Shown: positions 17,430 to 40,286 of the stretch, piece by piece | Position numbering within the stretch: position 1 is the first letter of the stretch | Layout of the letters: each line of letters starts with the position of its first letter | Virus record (IMG/VR): IMGVR_UViG_3300031867_004305 | Location: 117,043-181,042 of that record | Source of the DNA: a virus | Lineage: Duplodnaviria; Caudoviricetes | Length of the DNA stretch: 64,000 nucleotides | Reading direction: 5' to 3' (one strand) | The notes under the pieces: model-generated | Database searches by the model: none | Told to the model about the DNA's origin: nothing | The model's input: the letters and a program-made list of their open reading frames with translations, nothing else | Translations under genes and position numbers: made by a program

Positions 17430-17527
17430 TAGGCACACACAGCAATTTTTATTTATTATAAGAATTGTATTATTTGTTTGTTTTCGTGCCGCGGCTGATA
17501 GTACAAAAATAATTTTGATGTGCCTAG
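17430..17527 (+). ncRNA. CAGCAA-family stem RNA 1
   Basis: TAGGCACA-CACAGCAA ... TGTGCCTAG terminal stem. Confidence 0.65.
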
Positions 17528-17575
17528 AAAATACAATCTGAAATTATTAGTAGTGCTATTGGTCGCGAGAATTAT

Positions 17576-17652
17576 GCCGGTGTAGTTCAGATGTATAGAA
17601 CAACAGTCCTCTAAATTGTAAGTCGTGGGTTAGAGCCCCACCGCCGGTGCCA
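17576..17652 (+). tRNA. Atypical tRNA, Arg(UCU)-like
   Basis: Cloverleaf with CCA; loop CCTCTAA (C at position 33); T-loop TTAGAGC. Confidence 0.6.
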
Positions 17653-17668
17653 TTTAAAAGAGGTAAAA

Positions 17669-18643
17669 ATGAAACTACAATTCCTAATTCCTCAATACAG
17701 AGAAACAGAGGAAATGATTTGGCCTTTACTTACTTCAATTGCTCTTCAGCGTAGATTAGACTTTTCTGAGATAGGTGCTATCATTTGTAATGATGGTAGT
17801 GATACGATATTATCAGAAAGCTTTTTAGCACAATTTCCATATAGGATAGAATATATTCGTGCACCGCACGGCGGAGTATCTGCCGCGCGCAATATTTGTT
17901 TGCGACAAGCTACCGCAGATTATGTTATGTTTTGTGATGCGGATGATATGTTTTGTTCTACACATGAGTTGTGGCAGGCTTTGGATTCGCTTTATAAAGA
18001 CCCGTGTGATGTTTTGGTCTGTGATTATATAGAAGAATGGGCTACTTCGAAACAAAAATATACTTATAAAACTGTTACTGAACCAGACCATACTATTCAC
18101 GGGAAGATTTTTTCCCGTGTTTTTCTAATGGAAAAACAAATTTTTTGGAATGAAAAATTAACAAATATAGAAGATAATTATTTTTGTTTTTTAGTTTATA
18201 GCGAAAATCCAAAATTAGGGCAATACCATTATTCTACATATATGTATTGTAATTCAGAAGGCTCAATCACGCATAAGTTAGATTATAATTATTTTTCTAC
18301 ATTGGACGTTATTAAATGTTTTGTAGCGTTAATAGAAGAACTGCTGCGACGAGGTAATTATAATTGGGCACAAGATATGCTATTGAGTGTTTATTATAAA
18401 ATTTTCTTTACTACAAATCTAGAAGAATGGCAAACAGAAGAAAGAAGGGATTTAAAAACTAAAGTTGAACAAAGTTTTAAAAAAGAACTCCTTCCTTATT
18501 GGGATTTATATCTACAAACCAATGAGGAACAACGAGTTCAATTGTATAAGGAAACTAAAGTAGCTATAGAATATATTTGGCATCCATTTATTGAAACTAT
18601 TAGTTTCAAAGATTGGATAGAATATATAAGGGGGTTAACATGA
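17669..18643 (+). CDS. Glycosyltransferase family 2
   Basis: IPQY...CNDGSD...GVSAARN...YVMFCDADD motifs. Confidence 0.88.
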
Positions 18644-20544
18644 AAAAACTAATTACAGCAATTTTACTCCTCTTCTTCATTCCCCACATTCTTCTCGCAG
18701 AAGAAATTACTTCTATCCAAGACATTCTTCCATCAGAAGAAACTTTGTCTATTGAGGATACCGAAGTAATCATATCAGCGGAAGAAGAATTAACTCCAGA
18801 AGAATACACATTCAATCTTGAGCCGGAAGTTGAATTTATTGCTTCTAATGAAACAGAAGAAGAAGAAACAACCGAAGAAGAAACAACCGAAGGAGAAGAG
18901 GAAGAAGAAGAAACAACCGATGAAGAAACAGTAGTCTTTAAAGGAGAAGTTGAACTAACCGAAACACTCGGTATAGTAGATATTTCTCAAACCGTAAGCG
19001 TTTATAACTACTTCTACGACCGTGTAGCCAAGAAGTATTCAGTTCCTATGCAGACTGAAGTAAAACAACTAGGGCTTGACGCATACGTGCGTGTGCACCT
19101 AAATGCTTATCGCACGGTCAAGGCAACAGACGAAGAAGAAGAAATAGACTGGGATTTTCTTGAATGTGGCGTTTTAGACGCAGACGGAAATCTTCTTGAA
19201 GAAGGAACTCCCGACTATGTACTTATTGGTGATACAGTATACTACACCAAAATACTACCAAAGGGATATACTTTTTACGTAGCTTATTACGGACGTTTTA
19301 ATGACTATCAGCATTTAGCAACTAGTTCTCGCGTTAGCACTCGTCCTAGTGCCGACGCAGTTCAAAGTCAAAATTTTTATCCTGACTTTAGTAGCGACGA
19401 CCCTTGGAATAACATAAATATTCAAGAAAAAGAAAAAGACGAAGTAGAACAAGTAGCTTCTTTGACTTTTGAAGTCATAGAAGGCGAAGATTACGGAGAA
19501 CTTGAAGCGACAGTAGATGAAGAACAACTAAAAAATTATGCGATGCCAGGCGATAATATAGAGATGGAAGTCCAATTAGATGTAACTGGCGAAGAAGGCT
19601 ATATTTATGAAGTATTTCATAATATCAAAGCAATAACTTCTATGTCAGAACTAACCGATTCTATCATAGAAAATCTAAAAGTTTGGTTATCTGTAGACAA
19701 TGAAGAAAGAAATGAAATATATAATTCTGAAATACCTGAAGAAAAACAGTCATTAGGCCAATATATCAAAGGCCAAATACTAAATCTATGGTATTCTTTT
19801 ACACTCGCACCCGAATTAGATAATGATTTTGAAAGTGAACAACTCACTATCAAAACAGAATACGAATACGCAATCGCGGCGACCCCTACACCTTCACCTA
19901 CACCGACGCCAACTCCATCTCCAACCCCAACACCTACTCCATCGCCATCTCCTACACCTACACCAAGTCCTACTCCTACACCAACACCTAGCCCTACTCC
20001 CACTCCAACTCCCAGTCCTACCCCAACAATAACACCTTCTCCTAGTCCAACTCCAACACCAACTCCAACGCCTACACCCACACCTACCCCAACTCCAACA
20101 CCAACACCTACTCCTAAACCTACACATACGCACAAACCAACTTCAACACCAAAACCGACTCGTACTCCTAAACCTACAGAGGAAGTAGTTATAATAGTAA
20201 CTCCTACACCCACACCTACGCCCACTCCTACTTCTTCTCCTACTCCCACTCCTATTCCTACTCCAACCCCAACACCCACTCCAAAACCAACGATGTCACC
20301 ACGCGAGAAGGAACGTATTAGAAATTACATTATCAAAAATCGCGATACTGACCCAAGACTAAGCCAATACAAAGACATGACTGTAGAAGAATTAGAAGAG
20401 TTAATTGACCTTCTAGATTATGAAACTCCTTTGTATGGCGAGTTACTCAAAACAGGAGACGAAATCCCTATTTATCCATTTATTTTTGCGGGTGCGGGTA
20501 TATTAATTCTTTTATTTGCGATTTTCCGCAAACGTATTATTTGA
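18640..20544 (+). CDS. Secreted Pro/Thr-rich protein with sortase-type anchor
   Basis: Signal peptide; acidic domain; (PT/PS)n stalk; [16 protein letters not shown] + TM helix + RKR tail. Confidence 0.75.
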
Positions 20545-20569
20545 CTTTACATAAAAATTCTGCTATAAT
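20541..20569 (+). promoter_or_regulatory. sigmaA-type promoter for tRNA cluster
   Basis: TTGACT-17 bp-TATAAT with TG extension. Confidence 0.85.
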
Positions 20570-20636
20570 TATATTGTAAGGTTGAGAAAGGGCTACACTT
20601 CCTCCCTAGTCATAATGACTTAAAGAAGTGTTTTAT

Positions 20637-20710
20637 GGGGTATTAGTTCAATAGTAGAACACGACCCTTGCAAGGTTGAAACAGCGGAGCGTTACCGCTA
20701 TACTCCACCA
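20637..20710 (+). tRNA. tRNA-Ala(UGC)
   Basis: G3:U70 pair; CTTGCAA loop; non-canonical T-loop AGCGTTA; ACCA. Confidence 0.85.
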
Positions 20711-20815
20711 GGAGGTACGAAAGCACGGTGCCAAGCCCCAAGCAGCGTCATGAACTGTACAGTGCCTTGTGTGTTTCCTATTTCCACAAGTAAAGCTAAA
20801 AAAAATAGGACGCGT

Positions 20816-20890
20816 GTACCATTCGTTCAGTGGATAGGACACCTGACTACGGATCAGGAAACAGGAGTTCAAATCTTCTATGGTACGCCA
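20816..20890 (+). tRNA. tRNA-Arg(ACG)
   Basis: CCTGA-CTACGGA-TCAGG; GCCA. Confidence 0.92.
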
Positions 20891-20893
20891 CAA

Positions 20894-20961
20894 CTAGACA
20901 CGTACAGCAATCTTTTCTATACTACCTGCGCCATTTTTGCTGGAAATTAGAATGTGTCTAG
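20894..20961 (+). ncRNA. CAGCAA-family stem RNA 2
   Basis: CTAGACACG-TACAGCAA ... TGTGTCTAG, filling the spacer between two tRNAs. Confidence 0.65.
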
Positions 20962-20965
20962 ATTT

Positions 20966-21039
20966 AGGAGTTTAGTGTAATGGTAGCATACCGGTCTCCA
21001 ACACCGTTGGTGAGGGTTCAAATCCTTCAACTCCTGCCA
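20966..21039 (+). tRNA. tRNA-Trp(CCA)
   Basis: CTCCAAC loop; GCCA end. Confidence 0.9.
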
Positions 21040-21470
21040 TTAGGTTCCTCCTGTAAAAATCCTTCTGTTCGCGACAGTGAAAAGGGGTGGTTGGGGCTAG
21101 TAATATAAGCAAAGTAGAACTTATATTGCGTGTTCGCCATTAAAGAACGCTGGGAGTTCTCTTACCCCATAAGGTAGTCCGGAATACTCACAAGATTCGC
21201 TCGGTAACTAATTTTATCGTAACTTGAAATTAGCGGTAGTCAACCTCGTAAGTGTTGGACGTGTTGGCCTACGAATAGAAGCTACCAGTCTTCAGGTAAA
21301 TGGAGAATGAGGTGCCCGGGTGGGCGTGCCAACCAAGAGTAGAAAGAGGCACAATGGAGTATACACAACGCGAGTGTTTATTCCTACTGTTACTCGCGGC
21401 AGGTAGGATGATAGAACTGATGGATTGAGGCCCGGAGGTATTGATTCTGAACTTGCTGCGAGATTTATAC
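21040..21470 (+). ncRNA. Unassigned structured ncRNA candidate (~430 nt)
   Basis: No credible ORF; GC-enriched; several hairpins (GTAATATAAG/CTTATATTGC, CGCGAGT/ACTCGCG). Confidence 0.5.
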
Positions 21471-21619
21471 CGATCCCTAGCTCAGTAGGTCTAGAGCAGC
21501 GGCCTTCACGAAGTACAATCAAGTAGATGGTCTGAAATTACTCAGGCGGGTGACAGGTTCAAATCCTTCCTTCGTGACCAATAAGCCGTGTGTCCTGGGT
21601 TCGAGTCCCAGGGGATCGA
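21471..21619 (+). tRNA. tRNA-Ile(UAU) interrupted in the anticodon by a 74-nt tRNA-like insert (21507-21580)
   Basis: CGATCCC/GGGATCG acceptor, D and T arms intact; GCGGC-CTT[insert]ATAA-GCCGT. Confidence 0.8.
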
Positions 21620-21699
21620 GAGATACATAAACTCAGCCTTCACGTGGCGTATCTTGTTTTCACTAATGGGTTTACTTTATAAAAAGGAGGTATTTAATT

Positions 21700-22338: not shown

Positions 22339-22409
22339 GCACTAGTGGGAGAATGGTTATCCGGAAGTCTGCAAAACTTCATAAGCCAGTTCAATTCTGG
22401 CCTAGTGCT
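22339..22409 (+). tRNA. tRNA-Cys(GCA), CCA not encoded
   Basis: GAAGT-CTGCAAA-ACTTC; U discriminator. Confidence 0.88.
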
Positions 22410-22429
22410 CTAAAAAGGAGAAAGATTTT

Positions 22430-24058: not shown

Positions 24059-24239
24059 TTGATTTGGGATGATAATTTATATGACGCGATGAAAGATGTA
24101 TATGACTATGCCTATCGCGTTTTTTTTGGAAAAGCACCCATAGATGTTACTTATCGTGTGAATTATGGCAGTAGAGGAGCAGAACAAAAAGTTTTACAGT
24201 ATATTTGGAACACTTATATTGAACCGAAGGGAGAAAATA

Positions 24240-24821
24240 ATGAGTAATATTTATTTCAGTAGTGACTTGCATTTTTGTCATAACCGCGGTTTTCTTTATG
24301 AGCCACGCGGTTTTTCATCTATCGAAGAACATGACTCTGCCATTATTGAAAACTGGAATAAAATAGTTAAAAATAATGATGTTGTTTTTCTACTTGGTGA
24401 TTTAATGCTTAATGATAATGTAAATGGTATTAAAAAATTAAATAAATTAAATGGCACGATATATTACATACGAGGAAACCATTGCTCAAATGCGCGTTGC
24501 GTCCTATACGAAGAACAAACTAATATGATTCCGCTATGTAATAATTTCTTTAGTAGTTGGGCTTCATTAGAAAAAATCAAAGGATATAATTTGTATTTAT
24601 CTCATTATCCAACTATAATTGGCTCATTAAAAGATATGACGCCATTAAACAAGAGATTAATAAATCTTCATGGTCATCTTCATAGTAAAAATAAATTCTA
24701 TCAAGATATTCCTTTTATGTATAATGTAGCACTTGACGCACATAATAACGCGCCCGTATCATTTGATGAAATTATTTCAGATATTGAAGCAAAAGCAAAT
24801 GAATGTATTGCTATGCTATAA
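24240..24821 (+). CDS. Calcineurin-like metallophosphoesterase
   Basis: SDLHFCH, LGD, GNH, SHYP, HGHLH motifs. Confidence 0.88.
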   Translation: MSNIYFSSDLHFCHNRGFLYEPRGFSSIEEHDSAIIENWNKIVKNNDVVFLLGDLMLNDNVNGIKKLNKLNGTIYYIRGNHCSNARCVLYEEQTNMIPLCNNFFSSWASLEKIKGYNLYLSHYPTIIGSLKDMTPLNKRLINLHGHLHSKNKFYQDIPFMYNVALDAHNNAPVSFDEIISDIEAKANECIAML

Positions 24822-25129
24822 GGAGATAATATGATTTACGAGGGGCCTTATGTACTTATTTTAATTATCCTATTAGGGATAGGCGCTAGTTTATTATTGA
24901 CTGGTTTTATGAATAGTTAATCAAGGAGGAAATATGGGATTACCATTTATTTTTGGGAAAAAGAAAACAGAAGAAACCCCTGATATTACTAATGAAGAAT
25001 TAGAGAAAATATTAAAATCTGCTCCTGTAATATCTTCAAATACAATAAAACCAGAAGTTATAAGTTTAACTACTTCACGTGAATTAAAGTATTTAAAGAA
25101 ACGAATATGGAAATTCTATCATAAATAAT

Positions 25130-25158
25130 TTGACTTTTACTAAAAAATCTGCTATAAT
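25130..25158 (+). promoter_or_regulatory. sigmaA-type promoter of the DUF2828 gene
   Basis: TTGACT-17 bp-TATAAT with TG extension. Confidence 0.85.
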
Positions 25159-25222
25159 AATATTGTAAGAAAGAAACGAGCCCTAGTCCAGGGCTGACCA
25201 AATGAAAAGGAGAAAATAAATT

Positions 25223-26758
25223 ATGAATCGTCTTTACAATGCTATGGCTTCTCAGAACACCTACAAGACTACCGAGAATGGTGCTATCGCACGCACCACG
25301 ACCAGCTCTAAGCTATATGACCTCTTCTCTTTCGGCGCGGCTTACCGTCAGCGTACCGAGAGTGATTGCGTGCTACTATTTAAGGAGGCATATAAGGAAA
25401 GTCCTATGTATGCCCTAAAGTGCCTGTTCTATATCCGCGATATTCGCGGCGGACAGGGTGAGCGTCGTTTCTTCCGCACTTGCCTGCATTGGCTTGCGGA
25501 TTATGACCGCAATGCCGTACTACGCAATCTTGACCAGATTGCTGAGTATGGCCGCTGGGATGACCTATATGCCCTAGTGGGGACTTCTTGTGAACATGAT
25601 GCTCTTTATGCTCTTGGCAAGCAGCTTGCCCTTGATTACAAGACCAAGGGTGCTATTTCCCTTGCCGGTAAGTGGGCAGCTTCAGAGAACGCTTCTTCTG
25701 CCAAGACTAAGCGTTATGGTCGTCTAACTGCTCATACTATGGGTCTAACTTCTCGTCAATATCGCAAGGTGCTTTCTACCCTTCGTGAGCGTATTCGTGT
25801 TCTGGAGCGACTTATGTCCGCAAATCGTTGGAATGAGATTGAATTTGACAAGATTCCTTCTCGTGCTGGCCTAATCTACAAGAACGCTTTTGCACGCCGT
25901 GATATCATCAAGGCGAAGTATGAGTCTTTTGCAAAGGATAAGACTACCAAGGTTAACGCGGCAGCCCTCTATCCTTACGATGTCGTAGCTAAGGCAATTA
26001 AGCTGATGGGCTCTGACAGCTGGTATGGCCGTGGTAATCATGTTGCTCTTGACAATACCGATCGTCTAATGATTAACAAGTATTGGGAGAATCTTGTTGA
26101 TTATCTGACTGGTGCTCCACTAAATGCGGTGGTAGTGGCTGATACAAGCGGAAGTATGTGTTCAGGTGCTAATAGTGTGGCTCCAATTGATGTTGCTGTT
26201 TCTTTGGCTCTATACGCGGCCGAACGTATGCGTGGTCCTTTTGCCAATCATTATATTTCTTTTAGCCGTAAGGCTCGTTTAATCGAGACTACTGGCGTGG
26301 ATTTTTGTGATAAGGTAGATAGGATTGTAAGGACGAATCTATGTGAAAATACGAATTTAGCTTCCGTATTTGACCTTATCCTAAGTACTGCTTGTCACTA
26401 TAATCTATCTCAAAAGGATATGCCAGAAAGCATTATTATTGTAACAGATATGGAAGTAGATTCCGCACAGGGTTATTCTTCTTGGGGACGAGCACCTGAA
26501 TATGGACACGGCGGTAAGGGAATTCAAACCTTTATGGATAAGATGCGTAGTCGTTGGACTGACGCAGGATATAAAATGCCAAAAATTGTATTTTGGAACG
26601 TAAACGCACGAAATAATACAATTTTGGATGATGGCCCTGATGTTACTAATGTCAGCGGTTGCTCACCGGTTCTATTTGAATCTATCCTATCTGGAAAAAG
26701 TTCTTATGATCTTATGATGGATAAGCTAAATAGTAATCGTTATAAGCCAATTCATTAA
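25223..26758 (+). CDS. DUF2828-family TROVE/Ro60-like protein with C-terminal vWA domain
   Basis: TENGA, RDIRGGQGERRFF, EYGRWDDL, KW motifs; MIDAS DTSGSM; TDME; FWNVN. Confidence 0.82.
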   Translation: MNRLYNAMASQNTYKTTENGAIARTTTSSKLYDLFSFGAAYRQRTESDCVLLFKEAYKESPMYALKCLFYIRDIRGGQGERRFFRTCLHWLADYDRNAVLRNLDQIAEYGRWDDLYALVGTSCEHDALYALGKQLALDYKTKGAISLAGKWAASENASSAKTKRYGRLTAHTMGLTSRQYRKVLSTLRERIRVLERLMSANRWNEIEFDKIPSRAGLIYKNAFARRDIIKAKYESFAKDKTTKVNAAALYPYDVVAKAIKLMGSDSWYGRGNHVALDNTDRLMINKYWENLVDYLTGAPLNAVVVADTSGSMCSGANSVAPIDVAVSLALYAAERMRGPFANHYISFSRKARLIETTGVDFCDKVDRIVRTNLCENTNLASVFDLILSTACHYNLSQKDMPESIIIVTDMEVDSAQGYSSWGRAPEYGHGGKGIQTFMDKMRSRWTDAGYKMPKIVFWNVNARNNTILDDGPDVTNVSGCSPVLFESILSGKSSYDLMMDKLNSNRYKPIH

Positions 26759-26781
26759 AAGACGGATTATTCCGTCTTTTT
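26757..26781 (+). terminator. Intrinsic terminator
   Basis: AAAAGACGGA-TTAT-TCCGTCTTTTT. Confidence 0.75.
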
Positions 26782-26798
26782 ATTTAGGATGTGATTCT

Positions 26799-27542
26799 AT
26801 GGGAAGGCCCGCTAAAGATTTAACAAATCAAAGATTTCAACGATTATTAGTAATTAAGCGTGATGGTTCTACAGCTGATGGTCATGCTAAATGGTTATGT
26901 TTATGTAACTGCGGTAATTATATAAGTGTATCATCCAATAGTTTAAAACGCGGTGATACTAAATCTTGTGGATGCTTAAATAAAGATGTAGCAAGAGAAA
27001 AAGGTAGACAATCTTATAAAGATCTCACTAATAAACGTTTTAATAAACTAATTGCTAAAGAATATTTAGGAAGTAATAATAAAGGAAGTGGTTTATGGAG
27101 ATGCGAATGTGATTGTGGAAATAATAATTTTATTACAACGTCGCACCATTTAATTAGCAGCAATACGCAAAGCTGTGGTTGCTTAAAATCAAAAGGAGAA
27201 GCAAATATAAAACAACTACTTATAAATAATAATATTAATTTTATTTCACAATATTACTTTAAAGATTTATATTATGAAAGTAATATACCTGTTCGATTTG
27301 ATTTTTATTTACCCGATTATAACCGATTAATTGAATTTGATGGTATTCAACATTATACTTCTGGCGGTGGATGGAACACCGCTGAATTATTTAAACGCAA
27401 TAAAAAACACGACGAAATTAGAAACCAATATGCCCTTTCCCACAACATTCCTCTCGTTCGCATACCATATTGGGAACGTGATAATATTACTCTTGAAATG
27501 TTATTTAGTGATGAATATTTAGTGAAAGAAGAAGATGAATGA
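26799..27542 (+). CDS. Putative homing endonuclease (Zn-binding repeats + Vsr/DUF559-like nuclease)
   Basis: Two DLT..RF..L...W.C.C.CG...SCGC repeats; RFDFYLP...IEFDGIQH. Confidence 0.75.
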   Translation: MGRPAKDLTNQRFQRLLVIKRDGSTADGHAKWLCLCNCGNYISVSSNSLKRGDTKSCGCLNKDVAREKGRQSYKDLTNKRFNKLIAKEYLGSNNKGSGLWRCECDCGNNNFITTSHHLISSNTQSCGCLKSKGEANIKQLLINNNINFISQYYFKDLYYESNIPVRFDFYLPDYNRLIEFDGIQHYTSGGGWNTAELFKRNKKHDEIRNQYALSHNIPLVRIPYWERDNITLEMLFSDEYLVKEEDE

Positions 27543-27612
27543 AAATTCATCTTCTTTTTTATTGACTAAATATAAAAATTATAGTATAATAATTATAGAA
27601 AGGATGAGGAAT

Positions 27613-27969
27613 ATGAATTATTATATCTATCTTGATGATGTACGCGAAGATGATACTTGGTTTCGGCAACATTTAAATACAGAGCATTGGATTCCTTGCG
27701 TTGTTCGTTCCTATGATGAAGTAATTCATGTTCTCAATCATATGCGAGATTATATGAATGAGAATGAAGTGCTTATTCTTGACCTCGACCACGACCTTGG
27801 CGAAACTGAAGAAGGCTATAATGAACTCGCGCGCACAGGATATGACGTTTGTAAGTGGATTGTTGAAAACGATTTTCAAAATCTTTACTTTCATATACAT
27901 AGTATGAACCCCGTTGGGTCTGCAAATATGCGGCAACTTCTTACTCATTATGGATATAAGGAGATTTAG
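27613..27969 (+). CDS. Cyclic-phosphate-processing receiver domain protein
   Basis: IYLDDVR...LDHDLG...GYDVCKWI...IHSMNPVG signature. Confidence 0.75.
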   Translation: MNYYIYLDDVREDDTWFRQHLNTEHWIPCVVRSYDEVIHVLNHMRDYMNENEVLILDLDHDLGETEEGYNELARTGYDVCKWIVENDFQNLYFHIHSMNPVGSANMRQLLTHYGYKEI

Positions 27970-27970
27970 T

Positions 27971-28189
27971 ATGAAAAATCCTTGGGAAGATTGTACTCAT
28001 TATGATGGCTGGAATGGGTTTGAAGGAGCGGTAGTAAAACATGACCGTGGTATTTGGTCTGATGAAGTGTTTGATAATTGGTTAAGTGAATATTGTGAAC
28101 GTTGCCCATTCTTTGCGAGTGGAGAGGCTTGTGTATATGGAGACAAAGATGTTATGAAAATGATGAAAAACAAATATGAGGAAATTTAA
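27971..28189 (+). CDS. Hypothetical Cys-rich protein
   Basis: ORF in operon context. Confidence 0.5.
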   Translation: MKNPWEDCTHYDGWNGFEGAVVKHDRGIWSDEVFDNWLSEYCERCPFFASGEACVYGDKDVMKMMKNKYEEI

Positions 28190-28397
28190 TATGTGGAAAA
28201 AAGTAAAGGATTGCGAAACTCTTTCAATACAAGCCCTTGCAGCTATGGCACTCGTAGAAAAGAAAAATAATCGTTTAATTACTTGGTCTACTAGTGACGG
28301 ATTAATTCATTTATGCTCTTTTGAAACTTTAGCACAAATCAAAGAAACTGAAATAGAATCCAATACAAAATTTACTCTATGGGAGAAAAAATAAAGT

Positions 28398-29048
28398 ATG
28401 AGAAAGTATGAAAAGATTGATACTCTCTATCAAAGAGACACAACCGGAACTAAAAAGTTGCTTCCGGGAGTATTTCGTGATCCTACCGTAGAATATCTCA
28501 GCGACAATAATTGGATTTGGACTGAAAAGGTTGATGGCACTAATATCCGTGTATGTTGGGATGGCCATACTGTAACCTTTGGCGGCCGCACCGATAATGC
28601 TGCTATTCCCGCAGAACTTGTTACTCGTTTGAATGAGTTGTTCGGTGGAGAAACAAATGCTCAAATTTTTGAACAGGTTTTCGGCGATAAGGAAGTCATT
28701 CTTTTCGGTGAAGGCTATGGTCGCAAGATTCAAAAGGGCGGTGGAAAGTATATTCCCGACGGCGTAGATTTTATTCTTTTTGATGTGCTTATTGGCGACA
28801 ATTATCAAGAACGAGAATGGGTAGAAGAAACTGCCACAATGTTTGGAATTAAAGCTGTTCCTATTGTTGGCACTGGTAGTCTATATGCCGCAGGAGAGTA
28901 TGTAAAAACCCATCCTAATTCTGTAATTGCAGAAGAGCCGCGTGAAATGGAAGGAGTAGTATGTCGTCCTGCAATTGAACTACGCAATCGTCGCGGCGAG
29001 CGTATAATCGTAAAAATCAAATGGGAAGATATGAAGGAGCTAGTATAA
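28398..29048 (+). CDS. ATP-dependent RNA ligase (Rnl2-like nucleotidyltransferase core)
   Basis: Motif I EKVDGTN, III FGEGYG, IIIa FILFDV, IV EGVVCR, V IVKIK. Confidence 0.85.
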   Translation: MRKYEKIDTLYQRDTTGTKKLLPGVFRDPTVEYLSDNNWIWTEKVDGTNIRVCWDGHTVTFGGRTDNAAIPAELVTRLNELFGGETNAQIFEQVFGDKEVILFGEGYGRKIQKGGGKYIPDGVDFILFDVLIGDNYQEREWVEETATMFGIKAVPIVGTGSLYAAGEYVKTHPNSVIAEEPREMEGVVCRPAIELRNRRGERIIVKIKWEDMKELV

Positions 29049-29412: not shown

Positions 29413-30144
29413 AACAGGCGTTGTAAAATATCCTGTGTCCGCAAGAGTGATTGATACTAGTCTAAGTGGTCTCAACGGCGGAATATAAATAGGCAAAACC
29501 AAATTAGTATTGTATTAAATGAGCGGTGTTTAATGGGAACTGGAAATTACACACGGAAGCCCTGAGCGGGAGTACTACCGCAAGTTCTGCTATATGGGAG
29601 CAGACGCTCATTTAAAGCAACCGGTTGATTTACGTAATTAAGTCGTTAGGAGCGACATGAGCAGCAATGCGGTAATACCGGTGCACCGGTAGCAAAGTTA
29701 CCCTGGCTCCCCAGATGGCGCACTGGGTTATCAAAGGGCCGCTTGGCACCCTATCCCGAGCGTCTTCGTCGCGGTGCTAGAAACTCGCCCCATTAGCTGA
29801 GGGTCGAGGCAAAGAGGGAACGTTGTTGGTGGTAACGGTGAAGATTCGCCCGGTATTCTAGGCTTGCCGTAAAAGTGGTGGGTATACACACCACAGTCTA
29901 AACCCCAGTATATGTTGCGAACGACCTGGGTAAACAAAGTCGTTAGTTGGCGTCTTATCCCAAGCCTTTACGCGGCGACGCTATAAGTACCAAGAAGCAT
30001 TTTTAATGCTGGGCGTGAAACAAAGAGGGAACTAGGAGGCTGTGACCAAGGGTGATGTGGTCTGACAGTCCGAGTAATGACCGTTGAAGTCATTCGGTCG
30101 GTAGCAGGGCTCGGCCGTTACAACAGTGGATGCATACGCTTGTT
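29413..30144 (+). ncRNA. Large structured ncRNA candidate (~730 nt)
   Basis: End-to-end pairing AACAGGCGT/ACGCTTGTT; many internal helices; no credible ORF. Confidence 0.65.
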
Positions 30145-30302
30145 AGCCCTTTTTATTGATTCGGGAGGAAGTGTCCGTAGATGAACTTCTCGGAGTAATC
30201 GCCAAAATCGAATCGTGGTATACCATTGTACGAAACTTCTGTCATCCTTAGTTTCTTGCAGTTTCAAGGATGAGGGTCGCGGCCACCAGAGCGCCGCAAT
30301 AT

Positions 30303-30373
30303 GCTGCGTTAGTCCAGTGGTAAGACACGAGGCTTTCAATCTCGGCAGAGGGGTTCAATTCCCCTACGCAGTA
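30303..30373 (+). tRNA. tRNA-Glu(UUC), CCA not encoded
   Basis: CGAGG-CTTTCAA-TCTCG. Confidence 0.85.
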
Positions 30374-32217: not shown

Positions 32218-32544
32218 AAATTGTGATATAATATTTATAGAAACAAGGAAAGGATGATAATTGTGCGTAAGACTTCTCGTACTGTGTTTTCTTCTTCTTG
32301 GACTCGCCGCGAGCAGGCTGAAAAGCTTGATGAGTGGCAGAATTAGCCGGTATAAGCAGACAAATTGCGGCCAATAGAATGCCGGTACCGTAAATGTTCT
32401 TCTAACGCCTCTCGAAGAAGCGCACCACTAGAAGACTTATTACCTAGGTAGTTGCGGCGAACAACGATAAAAATCGCTAGTTGCCCAGATACTTACTTGA
32501 AGGGTTTCTGCCGCGTTAATCTTGGTATCGGATTGCGGTTGTAT

Positions 32545-33848: not shown

Positions 33849-34067
33849 ATGGAAAATATCATTCATGAAGAAGCCGAAAAAATTAAACAGAATATCATTA
33901 ATGAATTTGGAAAGAATAATATTTTAGATTTACACGTAGAATTAAATGAAGATTGGCGTGGAGACTATCTCGCTTGGTGGATTATTTTAAAAAATAATCG
34001 CAGAATAGAATGTATTAGATACTATAACAGCGATGGAACAATCAAAAAGAATTTGACTTTCTTCTAA
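33849..34067 (+). CDS. Hypothetical protein
   Basis: Promoter + RBS + ORF. Confidence 0.55.
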   Translation: MENIIHEEAEKIKQNIINEFGKNNILDLHVELNEDWRGDYLAWWIILKNNRRIECIRYYNSDGTIKKNLTFF

Positions 34068-34113
34068 AATTATAATATAATAATTATAGTAAAGGGAAAG
34101 GAATTAAGATGTA

Positions 34114-34179
34114 AGGCGGAAACAGCAACATTCTTTTAAGTAGCAATCTGTTAAATTGTAAGACTTATTAACCGCCTAG
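34114..34179 (+). ncRNA. CAGCAA-family stem RNA 3, carrying an Asn(GUU)-like anticodon hairpin
   Basis: AGGCGG-AAACAGCAA ... GCAAT-CTGTTAA-ATTGT ... CCGCCTAG. Confidence 0.65.
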
Positions 34180-34551: not shown

Positions 34552-34580
34552 TTGACTTTTTCTGAAAATTCTGGTATAAT
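34552..34580 (+). promoter_or_regulatory. sigmaA-type promoter directly upstream of the ROOL-like RNA
   Basis: TTGACT-17 bp-TATAAT. Confidence 0.85.
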
Positions 34581-34603: not shown

Positions 34604-35197
34604 GTAGATACCCTATTTAATAAAATGGTTGAACCAAGTGAAGAAGAGCTAACCACTCTGCTTGGACTATCCGAAAAACAGCCCCAAACTTGATGGGATA
34701 CTTTCAAGCCAAGGCCGCGAAATCAGTAATGATTAGCGATATGGAGAAACTCCTAATGTTAAGGGTAGGTGCTTGGTTATCCGCTAACAAAAACTTGGCT
34801 CCTCGCGGCGTCGTAATAGAAGGTGGGCGTTAAAAGCGTGACCTGAATCCAAGTTAGGCGTAGGATGGCTGCCACCGCAAACCTTGGAAATGCCAACAAG
34901 ACGCTTGGTGTCGTTGAAACCTAGAAATAGGATATAAGCGAGGTTCACAGAAAAAGTAGCCCAAAACGACAATGATTCTAATAGATATTTGTAAATATTA
35001 CTTGGAATTATTGTGCTGAACGGTTCGGGTGAAATTTGAGAGTAAGCAATCTCTCCGTTGCTCACCGAAAGGTAGGGTGAAGAAGTCCGGAATTGCTACC
35101 CGTGGCTCAGCCTTCATCTTCAACGTGGTTGAATATGTTAGAAGGATAATACAAGTACGACGAAGGTCGCAACGGTTTTATTAAATAGGGTATTTGC
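34604..35197 (+). ncRNA. Large ncRNA, ROOL-like (~590 nt)
   Basis: Long closing helix ATACCCTATTTAATAAAA/TTTTATTAAATAGGGTAT; size and tRNA-cluster context fit ROOL; family assignment is recollection, not a search. Confidence 0.6.
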
Positions 35198-35294
35198 CCT
35201 AAACTTTAAGGTAGCATTGGAGTAATTAACCAATGAGATGAAGATGCTCCTACATCAGCTTAAAGTTTAAAATATAATCATAGGAGTGATTAAT

Positions 35295-35855: not shown

Positions 35856-35922
35856 TCCAGTTGGCAGAACGATAGACTGTTAATCTATGTCAGCGCTGGT
35901 TCGAGTCCAGCACGGGCCGCCA
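35846..35922 (+). tRNA. tRNA-Asn(GUU)
   Basis: ATAGA-CTGTTAA-TCTAT; GCCA. Confidence 0.9.
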
Positions 35923-35999
35923 TCACGATAGCAAATAAGTGAATAAACGGATGTGCGGTTAGCTGACCTTAAAGCCATTTCATAAAAGGAGTAATAAAT

Positions 36000-36416
36000 A
36001 TGGGATTAGATAATGGTATAATTGTCCGTTCAAATCGTCGTAAGATTACGCGTGATATGCTACCAGAAGGAATGGTATATCCTTGGGATGAAAAATTTGA
36101 CAGTCCAGAAGGAGGGGTAGAGATTCTTTACTGGCGAAAGAATTGGGGTTTAAGAGATATAGTAGTAGATACTTTTCCAGTTTATGAAGATACTGGTTAT
36201 GACTACCTTATCGAAACTCCGCAACAAGTATTTGAACTAATCCGAATTATTGTTCCTTTTATGAGTAAGGAAAAGTGGGAAGAAGACGGTGATTCTATTT
36301 GGGATTACGATGAAATACTTCCTATTTTACAACAAAATATCATAAATTTGGCATTAATTGCTTCATTTATGAAAAATAACCCTGATGTTTATTTATTATT
36401 CTACGACTCATATTAA
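36000..36416 (+). CDS. Conserved phage hypothetical protein (MGLD...YWRK...YDSY)
   Basis: ORF with RBS and recognisable motif. Confidence 0.6.
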   Translation: MGLDNGIIVRSNRRKITRDMLPEGMVYPWDEKFDSPEGGVEILYWRKNWGLRDIVVDTFPVYEDTGYDYLIETPQQVFELIRIIVPFMSKEKWEEDGDSIWDYDEILPILQQNIINLALIASFMKNNPDVYLLFYDSY

Positions 36417-36428
36417 GGAGAAAATTAC

Positions 36429-36968
36429 ATGAACGAAGTAAGACTAAAGATTCTACCTCCTTGGACTATTGTAATTCGTAAGTTCGAGGCCCTATTTGAT
36501 GGTGACCCACAAATTGCTTGTAATTGTAACTTTAATGGTGCTAATCCTTCTATCGTTCTTGCTTGTAATAACGGAGATAAGGTCGCCGCACTCCTGAAGA
36601 TTCTACCTTCCGAAGTTGATTTTGGTAATATTAAGCTAAAGGTTGTGGTCGATGGCATTCCTTCTAATAAGGCATTTACTAGTAAGGTTGAGCTATTTGA
36701 CACCGCTTTTAAGGGTAATCCCGCATATGCATATTCCATATGTCCTGCTGAAGAAGGTTATATGTGGATTGGAACTACTTATGTAGTGTTCAAGAATTTC
36801 GTCGTACAGTTTGCTGCTGATAATCTAAACGATTGTCACGGCATTATTAGCACTCTATATCAAGATATTGCAGAAGAGCTTCTACGTGGAGAAGCTACTG
36901 AAGGTGTTTTTTACAATACTGATGTAGAACGTGCGAATCTCGGTAAGCCCCTAGGTGAGTGGCCATAA
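36429..36968 (+). CDS. Hypothetical phage protein
   Basis: ORF with RBS; VVQF.ADNL.D..G motif. Confidence 0.6.
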   Translation: MNEVRLKILPPWTIVIRKFEALFDGDPQIACNCNFNGANPSIVLACNNGDKVAALLKILPSEVDFGNIKLKVVVDGIPSNKAFTSKVELFDTAFKGNPAYAYSICPAEEGYMWIGTTYVVFKNFVVQFAADNLNDCHGIISTLYQDIAEELLRGEATEGVFYNTDVERANLGKPLGEWP

Positions 36969-36981
36969 GCCACTCTAATCT

Positions 36982-37057
36982 GGGCCTATAGTTCAGCGGC
37001 TAGAATGTCCGGTTGTCTCCCGGAAGATCGCAGGTTCGAATCCTGTTAGGCTCGCCA
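36982..37057 (+). tRNA. tRNA-Asp(GUC)
   Basis: TCCGG-TTGTCTC-CCGGA; GCCA. Confidence 0.9.
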
Positions 37058-37175
37058 TAGACTCATCCAGCAATTTCTTTTGCGCTGTAGGAGCCGGTAA
37101 TATTGGTTCAAATCCAATTCTCCTCACCATATGAGGAGATAGTGTAATAGGTAGCACGCCGTAAAATGAGTCTAG
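37058..37175 (+). ncRNA. CAGCAA-family RNA 4: permuted tRNA mimic (YrlA-like)
   Basis: TAGACTCAT-CCAGCAA; T arm, then closed acceptor TCTCCTCA-CCATA-TGAGGAGA, then D arm; ATGAGTCTAG. Confidence 0.75.
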
Positions 37176-37183
37176 TATATTAT

Positions 37184-37260
37184 AGGGGTGTGGGCTAAAG
37201 GTGAGCCGCCTCATTTGGGGTGAGGACATCAAGTGAGTTCGATTCTCACCACTCCTACCA
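37184..37260 (+). tRNA. tRNA-Pro(UGG)
   Basis: CCTCA-TTTGGGG-TGAGG; ACCA. Confidence 0.88.
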
Positions 37261-37358
37261 ATTAAGAAAAAGAGAAGCGTAAGAGTAATTAACTTATGAG
37301 ATAACAATACCTCAATATTGAGTCTTTTTCTTATATAAATATTATTGAGGCGATATTT

Positions 37359-37907
37359 ATGCCTAAAAGAATGACACAAGAAGATTTTAATGCTAGAATA
37401 AAAGATTACACTAATGATTCTATAATAGTTATTGGAGAATATAAAAATAAAAAAACTCCTGTTTTAATACAATGTAAAAAATGTAATTACAAATGGTATT
37501 ATTCTCCAGCATCATTAATGCCTAGTTCTACAAAAAATTATCATTTTAAAGGTTGCCCTAATTGTAAAAAAGTAACTCTTTTTTGCTTAGAATGTGGAAA
37601 AGAATTTACTCGGTTAAAAACTGAAATAAATGACAATAATTTTTGTTGTAAAACTTGTGCAAATCGTTATAAAAATAAACAAAAAATCAATAAAATTGAT
37701 AGTTTAGCATACAGACGCAATGCTTTTGAATATTATCCGCACAAATGCGATATTTGTGGTTGGAATAAAGATGAAAGAGTATTAGAAGTTCATCATTTAG
37801 ACGAAGATAGAACTAATAATCATATTGATAATTTACGAATTTTGTGTCCAAATTGTCATAAATTTTTAACATTGCATCTTTATTCTTATGAAGAAATGAA
37901 ACAGTAA
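37359..37907 (+). CDS. HNH endonuclease
   Basis: CDICGW...LEVHH.DEDRTNN.IDNL.ILCPNCH. Confidence 0.85.
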   Translation: MPKRMTQEDFNARIKDYTNDSIIVIGEYKNKKTPVLIQCKKCNYKWYYSPASLMPSSTKNYHFKGCPNCKKVTLFCLECGKEFTRLKTEINDNNFCCKTCANRYKNKQKINKIDSLAYRRNAFEYYPHKCDICGWNKDERVLEVHHLDEDRTNNHIDNLRILCPNCHKFLTLHLYSYEEMKQ

Positions 37908-38010
37908 TCAACTGGGTTTGGAGATTATCCCAACCGTAAAATCTCCTCCTTTCTGGTTTGACTTTTCTTAAAAATTTTGATATAATAAATATATCAAAGG
38001 AAAGGAAATA

Positions 38011-38244
38011 ATGAGTATGAAAAAGGAAGTTTTAGGTGTCAATCAAACTAAGGCAGAATTTGTCAAGTCTATTCATGATTGGCTGATGCGTACACTTAAA
38101 TCTTTAGATCGTGAAGAATATCAAAAATGTTTTAAAATTGAAGGATCTAGTATCATGTGTGAACTTCCAGATAATTTTTTTGATAATTATGAAATTCCTT
38201 CTGGCACACGCATTGAAATGAAATTTATTACAAAGAAATCTTAA
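38011..38244 (+). CDS. Hypothetical protein
   Basis: Promoter + RBS + ORF. Confidence 0.55.
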   Translation: MSMKKEVLGVNQTKAEFVKSIHDWLMRTLKSLDREEYQKCFKIEGSSIMCELPDNFFDNYEIPSGTRIEMKFITKKS

Positions 38245-38248
38245 AATT

Positions 38249-38351
38249 TTAAGCCGTCACAGCAATCTTTTTAAGTGGTTAAATTATTTTGATTGAGAAG
38301 CAAAATGAGAGACGGTTCAAACCCATCACAATTAAACAATTAACGGCTTAA
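38249..38351 (+). ncRNA. CAGCAA-family RNA 5 with degenerate D/anticodon/T arms in normal order
   Basis: TTAAGCCGT-CACAGCAA ... AAGTGGTTAA ... GACGG-TTCAAAC-CCATC ... ACGGCTTAA. Confidence 0.65.
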
Positions 38352-38367
38352 TATTAATACAGTGAAT

Positions 38368-38447
38368 AAGGCACACACAGCAATTACTTTTATAATTACA
38401 AGATATAGATATTGGGCAGTATATTAAAGTAAATTATTAGTGCCTTG
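38368..38447 (+). ncRNA. CAGCAA-family stem RNA 6
   Basis: AAGGCAC-ACACAGCAA ... GTGCCTTG. Confidence 0.65.
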
Positions 38448-38454
38448 AATTTAT

Positions 38455-38529
38455 GCCGGCGTAGCCCAATGGTAAGGCAGCTCACTTGTAATGAGCAGAT
38501 TGGGGTTTCGACTACCTCCGCCGGCTCCA
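38455..38529 (+). tRNA. tRNA-Thr(UGU)
   Basis: GCTCA-CTTGTAA-TGAGC; TCCA. Confidence 0.9.
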
Positions 38530-38549
38530 TTATTTAAAAGGAGTTTATT

Positions 38550-38966
38550 ATGGGATTTTTCACTAAAAAGAAACCAGTTACAGAACCGCTTAACCCCATT
38601 GAGAAAAAGTGCGAACATAAGTTTCAAGATTTTCCTTGGTTTTTAACTTGGGATTTACAATATAATAAATATATTATAAAAGTAATTGAACCTTATGTTT
38701 GTATCTTTTGCGGCGAAAGGAAAAATAAAATCCTCGCTTCTTATACTGGTACTAATTATAAGGAAGGCGAAAAACTTTTAAATGAACTCCATAATCGCTT
38801 TGATAATCATATTAAATATCAAGAAGAAGTAGAAGATATGATAAATGATATGATTTTAGTAGATCCAGAATACTTAAAATGGTATCATTTACTACGCGAA
38901 CAACAAGATCCATCTACTTCTCGGCCGCAAACCGAATTTAATAAGAAACCAGAATTAAAATTATGA
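38550..38966 (+). CDS. Hypothetical protein
   Basis: ORF with RBS; CEH...CIFC. Confidence 0.55.
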   Translation: MGFFTKKKPVTEPLNPIEKKCEHKFQDFPWFLTWDLQYNKYIIKVIEPYVCIFCGERKNKILASYTGTNYKEGEKLLNELHNRFDNHIKYQEEVEDMINDMILVDPEYLKWYHLLREQQDPSTSRPQTEFNKKPELKL

Positions 38967-38970
38967 TAAA

Positions 38971-39087
38971 TAGGCACATGCAGCAACTTACATAGATAAT
39001 CTATGAGTCATCGGTTCGATTCCGATTATGCAATCCAAAGCTTTGCGTATCGCCCAGATGGTAGGGCAATAGAAACAAGGTGCCTAG
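38971..39087 (+). ncRNA. CAGCAA-family RNA 7: permuted tRNA mimic (YrlA-like)
   Basis: TAGGCAC-ATGCAGCAA; ATCGG-TTCGATT-CCGAT; TATGCAA-TCCAAAGCT-TTGCGTA; GCCC-AGATGGTA-GGGC; GTGCCTAG. Confidence 0.75.
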
Positions 39088-39100
39088 ATGAAAGGTTTTT

Positions 39101-39538
39101 ATGAAGATTTATATTTCTTATTTTGCTCAAATTCGCAATTTTCCGCCTAACCTTGTTGGGCTTTCTACTGCCGTTTGGAACCCAAAATGGCTTCAGAAGG
39201 GAAGAAGTCAAAATGGAATTATTTGGTTAGATATTCCGCCTCTAAAACCCGGTAAGAGGTGTAATGGGCTATGTAATGGCAAATGTTCTCCTAAGCATCC
39301 AAATGATTGTAGTTTCTTACGTGAATATAAAAATCAACTAGATAAAATAGATTTCAATATGATAATGGAGCATCTTCAAGTATTAAGTGAGGCTATAAAA
39401 GTTGAAGAACAATTTGATGATGTAGATTTTGCGTTATTAGTCTATGAAAAATATGATAATATTTGTTCTGAACGATGGCCTCTTATTCAATGGTTTAAAG
39501 AGCATAGTGTTATATTAGAAGAATGGGAACTAACATAA
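39101..39538 (+). CDS. DUF488-like protein
   Basis: IYISYFA...PKW...L.P...LLVYEK...CSER; 3' end overlaps tRNA-Gln. Confidence 0.55.
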   Translation: MKIYISYFAQIRNFPPNLVGLSTAVWNPKWLQKGRSQNGIIWLDIPPLKPGKRCNGLCNGKCSPKHPNDCSFLREYKNQLDKIDFNMIMEHLQVLSEAIKVEEQFDDVDFALLVYEKYDNICSERWPLIQWFKEHSVILEEWELT

Positions 39539-39597
39539 TAGTAGTGTATTCGGCTCTGACCCGAAGTGTGATAGTTCAATTCTATCGTTCCCAGCCA
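39524..39597 (+). tRNA. tRNA-Gln(CUG)
   Basis: TTCGG-CTCTGAC-CCGAA; GCCA. Confidence 0.85.
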
Positions 39598-39600
39598 TAT

Positions 39601-39675
39601 GGGTGTGTAACCAAGAGGTAAGGTAACGGACTTTTAATCCGTGATTCGTGGGTTCGATCCCCGCCACACCCACCA
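39601..39675 (+). tRNA. tRNA-Lys(UUU)
   Basis: ACGGA-CTTTTAA-TCCGT; ACCA. Confidence 0.92.
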
Positions 39676-39685
39676 ATTATAATAC

Positions 39686-39775
39686 GCGGTATTAGCGTAG
39701 AGGCCGAACGCGGGAGTTTGCTAAACTCTGTCGATCTTCAGTGATCCGAAGGTTCGAATCCTTCATACCGCGCCA
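39686..39775 (+). tRNA. tRNA-Ser(GCU)
   Basis: GGAGT-TTGCTAA-ACTCT; long variable arm; GCCA. Confidence 0.88.
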
Positions 39776-39777
39776 AA

Positions 39778-39934
39778 TGTGGACAGTAGGCTTGGAAGCA
39801 GCCATCTGATAATGAGTCTTTAATTTCTCCATCTGTGCGAAATGTATTATAGGCTACATTTGTTATAATGTCCTATGAGTATGATGTGCGGATGGGCAAT
39901 AGAAATATGAAGTTTGGCGTAATAGCACACCACA
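39778..39934 (+). ncRNA. 23S rRNA L11-binding-domain (H43/H44) mimic
   Basis: GGCTTGGAAGCAGCCATC and GCGTAATAGCACA closed by TGTGG/CCACA. Confidence 0.7.
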
Positions 39935-40063
39935 TAGCTCATCTGCCATGTGTAGAAGGAGCGGAGAAATCGTTCTGCGATTTCGTTAATAGACTTGCCC
40001 ACGCCTCTGATTCAAGCGTACCTTGGGGAGCACGCGGCCACAGCGGTTAAAGTGGCACTATGC

Positions 40064-40138
40064 GCGGGTGTAGTTCAACGGCTCGAATACCTGGCTTCCA
40101 CCCAGGAGATGAGGTTTCGACTACCTCTACTCGCACCA
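40064..40138 (+). tRNA. tRNA-Gly(UCC)
   Basis: CCTGG-CTTCCAC-CCAGG; ACCA. Confidence 0.88.
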
Positions 40139-40142
40139 ATAT

Positions 40143-40218
40143 AGGCGTGTAGCCAAGTGGTTAAGGCACATGGCTTTGACCCATGCATTCGCTGGTTCAA
40201 ATCCAGCCACGCCTGCCA
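40143..40218 (+). tRNA. tRNA-Gln(UUG)
   Basis: CATGG-CTTTGAC-CCATG; GCCA. Confidence 0.92.
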
Positions 40219-40222
40219 ATTT

Positions 40223-40286
40223 TAGACGCCATTGTGCCACAACAACAGCAATTATTTTGTAGCTCCATTTTTTATAAGGCGTCTAG
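40223..40286 (+). ncRNA. CAGCAA-family stem RNA 8
   Basis: TAGACGCC-(small hairpin)-AACAGCAA ... GGCGTCTAG. Confidence 0.6.

Follow-up and report, generated by a model that had tools for sequence, protein, structure and literature searches.

What are the eight small, stem-closed elements that lie scattered among the tRNA genes of a rumen phage, and how are they related to the DUF2828 protein encoded in their midst? The stretch under study (the window, 64,000 nt) comprises the final 64 kb of one 181-kb rumen phage record, IMGVR_UViG_3300031867_004305; it has a G+C content of 36.6% and carries 19 tRNA genes, all on the + strand and spanning 17.3-40.2 kb. Ro60 and the Y RNAs form a classic RNA-surveillance particle, and a sequence-only reading of the window had proposed that a terminal stem and the hexamer CAGCAA together make up the handle by which these elements are held by the DUF2828 protein, which it took to be Ro-like. 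Co-location, co-occurrence, a predicted Ro60 fold and tRNA-derived interiors support this proposal, and binding is presumed on these grounds. The handle accompanies the DUF2828 gene in many phages and gut bacteria, so the RNAs are most likely the Y-RNA-like partners of the protein; we regard it as probable that they constitute a family of small noncoding RNAs, each made up of a handle and a cargo, that partners a Ro60-shaped DUF2828 ring.

All eight elements can be read directly in the window, lie on the + strand in noncoding gaps and measure 64-117 nt:

E1, 17429..17527, + strand: 9-bp closing stem with one G-U pair, CAGCAA at 17440, AU-rich interior of 74 nt (z -3.2)
E2, 20894..20961, + strand: 10-bp closing stem, CAGCAA at 20905, a short form
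E3, 34114..34177, + strand: 6-bp closing stem, CAGCAA at 34123, interior mimicking an anticodon arm
E4, 37058..37174, + strand: 9-bp closing stem, CAGCAA at 37068, permuted tRNA-like core (z -5.1)
E5, 38249..38351, + strand: 9-bp closing stem (UUAAGCCGU), CAGCAA at 38260, imperfect T-arm-like hairpin inside
E6, 38367..38447, + strand: 8-bp closing stem, CAGCAA at 38378, AU-rich interior
E7, 38971..39086, + strand: 7-bp closing stem, CAGCAA at 38981, YrlA-like permuted tRNA core
E8, 40222..40286, + strand: 9-bp closing stem, 15-nt linker, CAGCAA at 40246, an atypical member

The closing stems of 6-10 bp differ in sequence from element to element while their pairing is preserved, as had been claimed, with 5′ strands that start (U/A)AG(G/A)C (UAAGC in E5) and 3′ strands that end CUA(G) or CUU. 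Minimum-free-energy folds retain the closing stem in all eight elements, with z values from -1.5 to -5.1. A U-rich stretch follows CAGCAA. The motif begins 1-3 nt past the 5′ strand in seven of the eight copies, in agreement with the sequence-only reading, which had also placed a small extra hairpin ahead of the motif in E8. That hairpin does not appear in the predicted fold of E8, where 15 nt separate stem and motif, and a U-to-C change in the ortholog would break it; this ortholog, in the related phage G001 (L165 3220-3294), keeps the whole 15-nt linker. Orthologs of other elements are found at related loci, for E2 in L002, L003 and L007, for E4 in L007 (94% identity) and L165, and for E5 in L007 (95% identity). 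In L006, an A-U pair in the stem of the E1 ortholog is replaced by G-C, a compensatory change through which GGCACA/UGUGCC in the window corresponds to GGCGCA/UGCGCC.

The number of copies in the genome is far above chance. A strict descriptor, defined as a stem of at least 6 bp with AG near its start, a linker of 1-3 nt and CAGCAA, yields eight + strand matches and one - strand match in the 181-kb genome, compared with a mean of 0.88 matches and a maximum of four on both strands of 60 Markov-simulated genomes. Seven of the eight + strand matches are elements described above, all within 21.6 kb, and the eighth is a stray match to a repeat of CAGCAA that lies about 30 kb before the window starts. 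The presence of eight elements is thereby upheld by direct reading, by folding and by count, and a ninth clear copy was not found in the window.

Six of the eight elements lie within 14 nt of a tRNA end, which bears out the claim that most of them abut tRNA genes. E1 is located 14 nt downstream of tRNA-Ser, E2 lies between tRNA-Arg, 3 nt upstream, and tRNA-Trp, 4 nt downstream, E3 is 9 nt upstream of tRNA-Leu, E6 is 7 nt upstream of tRNA-Thr and E8 is 3 nt downstream of tRNA-Gln. The gaps between E4 and its flanking tRNAs are 0 and 9 nt, the first base of the element being the one after the CCA end of tRNA-Asp. E5 and E7 adjoin small open reading frames (ORFs) instead.

The proposed partner is encoded between E2 and E3:

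25223..26758, + strand: protein of 511 amino acids with DUF2828 and DUF7788 domains, predicted to form a Ro60-like ring with a vWA domain

To our knowledge, no function has been assigned to the DUF2828 family. The protein matches Pfam PF11443 (1.7e-30, 106.6 bits against a cut-off of 29) and PF25043 (2.6e-34, 118.9 bits against a cut-off of 27.1), as well as phrog_850 (5e-115). The Pfam search returned these two domains only, with no match to PF05731 (TROVE), and a phmmer search of PDB sequences returned no Ro60 match. An AlphaFold2 model built with 36 homologs (predicted local distance difference test score 84.6, predicted template modeling score 0.84) was compared with PDB structures using Foldseek, and the 12 best matches are all Ro60/TROVE proteins aligned over the full length of the model, with E values of 1e-8 to 3e-5, template modeling scores of 0.45-0.59 and 11-15% identity. 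They include Xenopus and human Ro60, Deinococcus Rsr and the Ro60 of Thermus phage phiLo (9L5Y, 9KOP). The relation of DUF2828 to Ro60 is visible only at the level of this predicted fold. Residues D307, S309 and S311 are invariant and correspond to the DxSxS metal ion-dependent adhesion site (MIDAS) motif of the vWA domain; the model combines a helical-repeat ring with a vWA domain bearing a MIDAS, an arrangement by which Ro60 ribonucleoproteins are recognized. A look-up in the ESM Atlas brought up no clusters other than those of DUF2828 proteins of phages and giant viruses. About 700 sequenced phage records contain the family, among them those of Felix O1-type, Listeria P100-type, Enterococcus and mycobacterial phages, and it also occurs in giant viruses and gut bacteria.

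The RNA elements are not restricted to the window. Two sets of loci were assembled, 80 viral loci retrieved via the DUF2828 protein (29-97% identity) and an independent collection of 80 loci from bacterial assemblies. The consensus across the viral loci reads AGRCNC, then WNA, then CAGCAA, the preferred closing stem being AGRCNC paired to GNGYCU, and the RNA ends conserved in relatives are AAG... and ...CUUGU. Arrays of 3-10 copies with differing interiors are typical. A covariance model, R1, was built from 31 short copies at distant loci, including no copy from the window or from a close relative. Run on the window with filters off, R1 ranks E6 (34 bits, E 6.5e-5) and E2 (33 bits, E 1.1e-4) highest, followed by E3 (23.1 bits, E 0.017) and E1. 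In the window, R1, which was built from short forms, does not pick up E4, E5 and E7, whose forms are long, or E8 with its long linker; these four call for the descriptor scan. Handle RNAs also occupy unannotated gaps in cultured phages: four are found in the tRNA array by the DUF2828 gene of E. coli phage wV8, three upstream of the gene in Listeria phage P100plus, two upstream of it in Enterococcus phage vB_EfaM_A2, and two 3′ of a gene annotated as a "Ro-like RNA binding protein" in Mycobacterium phage Silverleaf. The family, its structure and its covariation are therefore established for the eight elements and their relatives.

The linkage of these RNAs to the DUF2828 gene is strongly strand-specific. 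The 80 viral loci hold 178 descriptor matches on the strand of the DUF2828 gene versus 20 on the opposite strand, with 40 same-strand matches in the 1 kb upstream of the gene, 20 just downstream and none in the first 1 kb of the gene itself. The 80 bacterial loci give 204 same-strand and 18 opposite-strand matches, mostly less than 1 kb upstream of the gene, and 65 of these loci are positive. This pattern bears on the suggestion that the elements are DNA-level repeats with inverted termini, that is, miniature mobile elements or recombination sites. Their terminal inverted repeats do contain the palindrome CTAG and homing endonuclease genes are present in the region, but stem sequences differ between copies with pairing kept, G-U pairs included, the strand bias is strict (178:20 and 204:18), copies share no common sequence past the handle, and orthologs sit at fixed syntenic places; we find this origin hardly credible. 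Repeats resembling miniature inverted-repeat transposable elements, terminators and chance were all considered as the origin of the elements and rejected.

Searches that start from the RNA lead to the same gene. In four phages of 170-190 kb whose whole records were searched with R1, nearly all matches lie on the strand of the DUF2828 gene, either adjoining it or in the surrounding tRNA region. For Pseudoflavonifractor capillosus ATCC 29799 and Enterococcus sp. LJL51, whose genomes were searched in full (3.7-4.2 Mb), R1 gives only two matches each, directly upstream of DUF2828. PF11443 is present in eight of 141 genomes of one bacterial family, and R1 matches were found in six of these eight, on the same contig and strand and at most 1.6 kb upstream of the gene, versus none of the 133 DUF2828-negative genomes, a pattern with a hypergeometric probability of about 3e-9. 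This is the co-occurrence to be expected from the sequence-only reading, and no Pfam TROVE domain is found in the same 141 genomes. In the genome G006 (Clostridiales bacterium CCNA10), five further model matches are clustered on the + strand at C1:1056324-1060000, about 40 kb from the DUF2828 gene, and so a second locus or a prophage tRNA region may exist there. A test of co-evolution between lineage-specific outer stem pairs and the protein gave a weak signal (2.48 versus 2.07 identical positions of 4) and is not relied on. The linkage to DUF2828 is nonetheless well established by the whole-genome and 141-genome searches, and the predicted fold of the linked protein is Ro60-like.

It may be asked whether the handle is read by a different factor, such as a processing nuclease, an RNA ligase, RtcB or a host tRNA enzyme, with DUF2828 merely sharing its substrates. 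RNA-repair genes recur beside DUF2828, the conserved ends AAG.../...CUUGU could be cleavage or ligation signals, and the canonical Ro60 motif is absent from the handle. Against this, no gene family except DUF2828 occurs at every one of the 82 full-flank loci, and the most frequent real neighbor after it reaches only 18 of the 82; RNA-bearing genomes in the whole-genome and 141-genome searches always have an adjoining DUF2828 gene; and the predicted fold of DUF2828 is that of a Y-RNA-binding ring. We consider another reader of the handle unlikely.

The interiors of the elements vary widely, as the sequence-only reading had described. They range from AU-rich loops to an anticodon-arm mimic (E3) and permuted tRNA cores (E4 and E7). 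The hairpin inside E3 has 4 bp and the loop CUGUUAA; in orthologs it is kept through a compensatory change from C-G to U-A and has the loop CUUUUAA. E4 contains, in order, a T arm, a closed acceptor stem with ACCA in its loop, and a D arm, and the same order is seen in E7, where the loop of the acceptor hairpin holds UCCA and orthologs show compensatory changes in this hairpin from A-U to C-G. A tRNA-like domain of this kind (T arm, closed acceptor-like stem, D arm) is present in E4 and E7, partial in E5 and absent in E1, E2, E3, E6 and E8. In both E4 and E7 the loop that closes the acceptor stem begins with N-CCA, like a tRNA 3′ end, a feature kept in relatives; it recalls YrlA of M. smegmatis, which undergoes RNase P cleavage and CCA addition (PMC4201824). 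Among 368 distinct copies surveyed (196 long, 172 short), 71 of the 196 long interiors carry a UUCRA T loop versus 0.2 expected from shuffles, and 33 of the 172 short interiors carry an anticodon-like 7-nt loop versus 2 expected, the commonest anticodon-like triplets being UCU, UUU, CAU and GUU. In relatives on bacterial contigs, the stem-plus-CAGCAA handle encloses complete tRNA-like bodies (L125 4948-5020, L125 5484-5557, L124 5627-5697 and L153 5114-5184). Both ARAGORN and Rfam classify these bodies as tRNAs (Met, Arg, Thr, Ile), so that handle RNAs are probably present among the annotated tRNAs that adjoin DUF2828 genes.

These interiors also bear on a cis-acting role, in which the elements would be signals in long transcripts, either leader-trailer helices of tRNA operons or autoregulatory sites in the DUF2828 mRNA. 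Such a role would suit the many copies located directly upstream of the DUF2828 gene elsewhere, the abutment of most window copies on tRNAs and the relatives in which the handle encloses a whole tRNA-like body. However, the window copies are eight in number and lie 4-15 kb from the DUF2828 gene, a punctuation signal would have no need of conserved and covarying tRNA-like interiors, the interiors typically differ within arrays of 3-10 copies, and the look-alike Class I RNAs of Dictyostelium are stable and abundant (PMC7919456). A purely cis-acting function is thus quite unlikely in our judgment.

Comparison with Rfam indicates that no existing family accounts for the elements. At gathering thresholds, the window contains tRNAs and a ROOL RNA only, and eight copy-rich related loci contain tRNAs and one tmRNA only, with no YrlA. 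When the eight elements were searched at E <= 10, only E7 matched YrlA (RF02553), over its full length but at 30.9 bits against a gathering threshold of 69 (E 3e-4 on 2 kb). Close counterparts are the Ro60/Rsr particles with YrlA and YrlB, which share paired ends with an adjacent conserved 5′ motif serving as the protein handle (RF02553; PMC4201824), genes located beside and on the same strand as that of a Ro60-fold ring protein, and RNA-repair neighbors. The tRNA-like module is shared by E7, which aligns end to end with the YrlA model, and by E4, which is built in the same way; with the new handle attached to a body of YrlA type, E7 is a hybrid linking the two RNA families. There are also differences. 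YrlA genes are recognized by a TROVE-domain Ro60 gene nearby, whereas the proposed partner in the window is a DUF2828/DUF7788 protein that lies outside Pfam TROVE and shares 11-15% identity with Ro60s of solved structure; the motif is a single-stranded CAGCAA past the stem here and GNCGAA within a bulged helix there; and most copies have no full tRNA-like domain and score far under the YrlA threshold.

A phage-encoded system of comparable kind is the phiLo Ro60 with its RNAs Yrl1 and Yrl2 (PMC12135203; 9KOP, 9L5Y), in which small RNAs adjoin the gene for a phage Ro60-fold protein and binding requires a short motif located close to the 5′ strand of the stem that closes the RNA (PMC12135203). 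In phiLo, however, this motif is CGAA in a stem-bulge-stem, the protein is a recognizable TROVE protein, and neither a tRNA-operon setting nor cargo made of tRNA parts is described (PMC12135203). Another Ro60-like protein, Bas63 gp130 of a Felix O1-type phage, is encoded directly upstream of tRNA genes and is reported in the 2024 PhageMaP preprint to counter the Ppl defense system (PMC11482910). The position of its gene by a tRNA array is the same as in wV8, and judging from gene position and fold gp130 is a candidate member of the DUF2828 family. The authors of that preprint guess that some annotated tRNAs may be Y RNAs, but describe no RNA family, handle or motif (PMC11482910). Literature mentions of DUF2828 include none concerning phages or RNA, and the handle RNA family was found neither in Rfam nor in the literature searched.

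Resemblance also extends to a group of eukaryotic RNAs. The Class I RNAs of Dictyostelium (RF01414) have a 6-bp stem joining their ends, start with AAG and end with CUGU, and carry an 11-nt unpaired motif next to the 5′ strand (PMC7919456); the pattern used to search for them, GTTGRCCTTACAGCAA ... GTCAACTG, contains a motif that ends in CAGCAA (PMC5054030). They are stable, abundant RNAs of 42-65 nt, transcribed from promoters with a Dictyostelium upstream sequence element (DUSE) and reported to bind Rnp1A (PMC7919456), and the published search found them in dictyostelids and in no other organisms (PMC5054030). Both groups have an end stem of about 6 bp that varies in sequence with pairing kept, a conserved unpaired motif beside the 5′ strand ending in CAGCAA, similar ends (AAG and CUGU there, AAG... 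and ...CUUGU in the phage and bacterial RNAs), a variable interior and many genes per genome. The elements described here differ in their sigma-70-like promoters, phage setting and length of 64-117 nt, and the best score of RF01414 for any element in the 181-kb genome is 11.8 bits for E6 against a gathering threshold of 41.5, at an E value of about 4. This is resemblance and not membership.

Several observations count against the proposed partnership of handle RNA and DUF2828. The GNCGAA/CGAA motif inside a bulged helix by which Ro60 is known to recognize its RNAs (PMC4201824; PMC12135203), and the corresponding YrlA 5′-strand motif GNCGAAN0-1G (CGAA), occur in none of the eight handles; the sequence-only reading had itself observed that no canonical Ro site is evident. 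In predicted ensembles of the 368 copies, CAGCAA is unpaired at 0.50-0.76 compared with 0.51 for the interior, which is only a moderate excess, and pairing of the motif is extensive in E1 and partial in E4 and E8. The copies in the window share the strand of the DUF2828 gene but lie 4-15 kb from it and do not adjoin it. Both 80-locus sets were chosen through DUF2828 itself, and two of the eight DUF2828-positive genomes in the bacterial family have no R1 match. The elements are presumed to exist as discrete RNAs, and the binding of the handle by DUF2828, the processing of the RNAs and their function are inferred.

The genes and sites around the elements suggest how a partnership of handle RNA and DUF2828 might operate:

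20541..20569, + strand: promoter-like site TTGACT-17-TATAAT (consensus match only), preceding tRNA-Ala, tRNA-Arg, E2 and tRNA-Trp
24165..24821, + strand: phosphoesterase gene (phrog_547, E 6e-47), just upstream of the DUF2828 gene
26799-27542: homing-endonuclease-like ORF, wedged directly 3′ of the DUF2828 gene
27535..27969, + strand: protein with a cyclic-phosphate processing receiver (cREC) domain (PF20274, E 7.5e-20)
28398..29048, + strand: RNA ligase (PF09414, E 1.2e-15; phrog_548)
34053..34081, + strand: promoter-like site of the same TTGACT-17-TATAAT form (consensus match only), about 30 nt ahead of E3/tRNA-Leu
37958..37986, + strand: promoter-like site (consensus match only), preceding a small ORF, E5, E6 and tRNA-Thr

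The phosphoesterase, the cREC protein and the RNA ligase form an RNA-repair-like gene set around DUF2828 (window 24165-29048). In relatives, RtcB or RlaP is encoded downstream of the DUF2828 gene, as in Listeria phage P100plus, where an RtcB-type ligase lies 1.3 kb 3′ of it. RNA-repair genes beside a Ro60-like gene are likewise a feature of the Salmonella rsr-yrlBA-rtcBA operon, an Rsr-Y RNA-RtcB repair operon (PMC7790460). Promoter-like sites of the TTGACT-17-TATAAT form head the units that hold E1, E2, E3 and E5/E6, and the handle RNAs would be transcribed together with the phage tRNAs from such strong promoters. Because most elements abut tRNA ends, RNase P and 3′-end processing of the neighboring tRNAs may then excise them. 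The resulting RNA would consist of two modules, a handle (closing stem, linker of 1-3 nt and single-stranded CAGCAA) and an interchangeable cargo, usually a piece of tRNA in the form of a permuted core (E4, E7) or an anticodon mimic (E3), or else an AU-rich loop. As suggested by linkage and fold, the handle would serve as a docking site for the DUF2828 ring in the way that Y RNAs dock on Ro60/Rsr, and the particle would present the tRNA-like cargo and work with the phosphoesterase, cREC protein and RNA ligase in this phage, or with RtcB or RlaP in relatives. Its likely role during infection would be the protection or repair of tRNAs, or the countering of host defense.

Other noncoding features share this region with the elements. 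Downstream of E3/tRNA-Leu and ahead of the tRNAs that come next is a full-length ROOL RNA (34610-35188, 307.6 bits), which is served by a strong promoter-like site of its own (34552-34580) and is kept in L002, L004 and L007. Between tRNA-Met and tRNA-Glu, a G+C-rich noncoding stretch of about 800 nt (29440-30310) is kept as mosaic pieces of 77-84% identity in the related phages L001-L009 and L081; it has no Rfam match at E <= 10 and may represent another large structured RNA besides ROOL. A candidate ninth copy of the handle RNA at 29602-29765, with an 8-bp AGACGCUC stem, the variant motif AAGCAA and a 164-nt span, was not counted, as it is more likely a helix of this large conserved region. 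Another G+C-rich spacer of about 290 nt (39776-40063) between tRNA-Ser and tRNA-Gly is also without an Rfam match; its first half is kept in the related phage G001, from which the second half and tRNA-Gly are missing. Weaker signals include 21507-21577, to which a tRNA model gives 22 bits, and 32399-32435, which resembles abiF RNA but stays below the threshold (29 of 37 bits).

A broader idea, which we put forward tentatively and consider less likely than not, is that the phage and bacterial handle RNAs and the unexplained Class I RNAs constitute one ancient family that has the Ro60-like DUF2828 ring as its universal partner, with the cargo of the phage RNAs acting as decoys or baits. The cargo would then comprise anticodon arms of the Lys, Arg, Asn and Met type, tRNA elbows and whole tRNA bodies, and the particle might intercept anticodon nucleases of the host or direct repair enzymes to tRNAs that have been cut.

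We rate the handle RNAs and DUF2828 as a variant of the Ro60/Y-RNA kind, with a handle that is absent from Rfam. The window demonstrates that copies can be scattered through tRNA operons and need not be clustered at the DUF2828 gene, and handle RNAs account for unannotated gaps in many phage tRNA arrays. The family might also explain the Class I RNAs of Dictyostelium, reported to be unique to that group. A defined and easily recognized RNA partner makes the function of DUF2828 testable in cultured phage-host pairs, and points to tRNA look-alikes, carried on a protein platform, as a means that phages use in the conflict over tRNAs.

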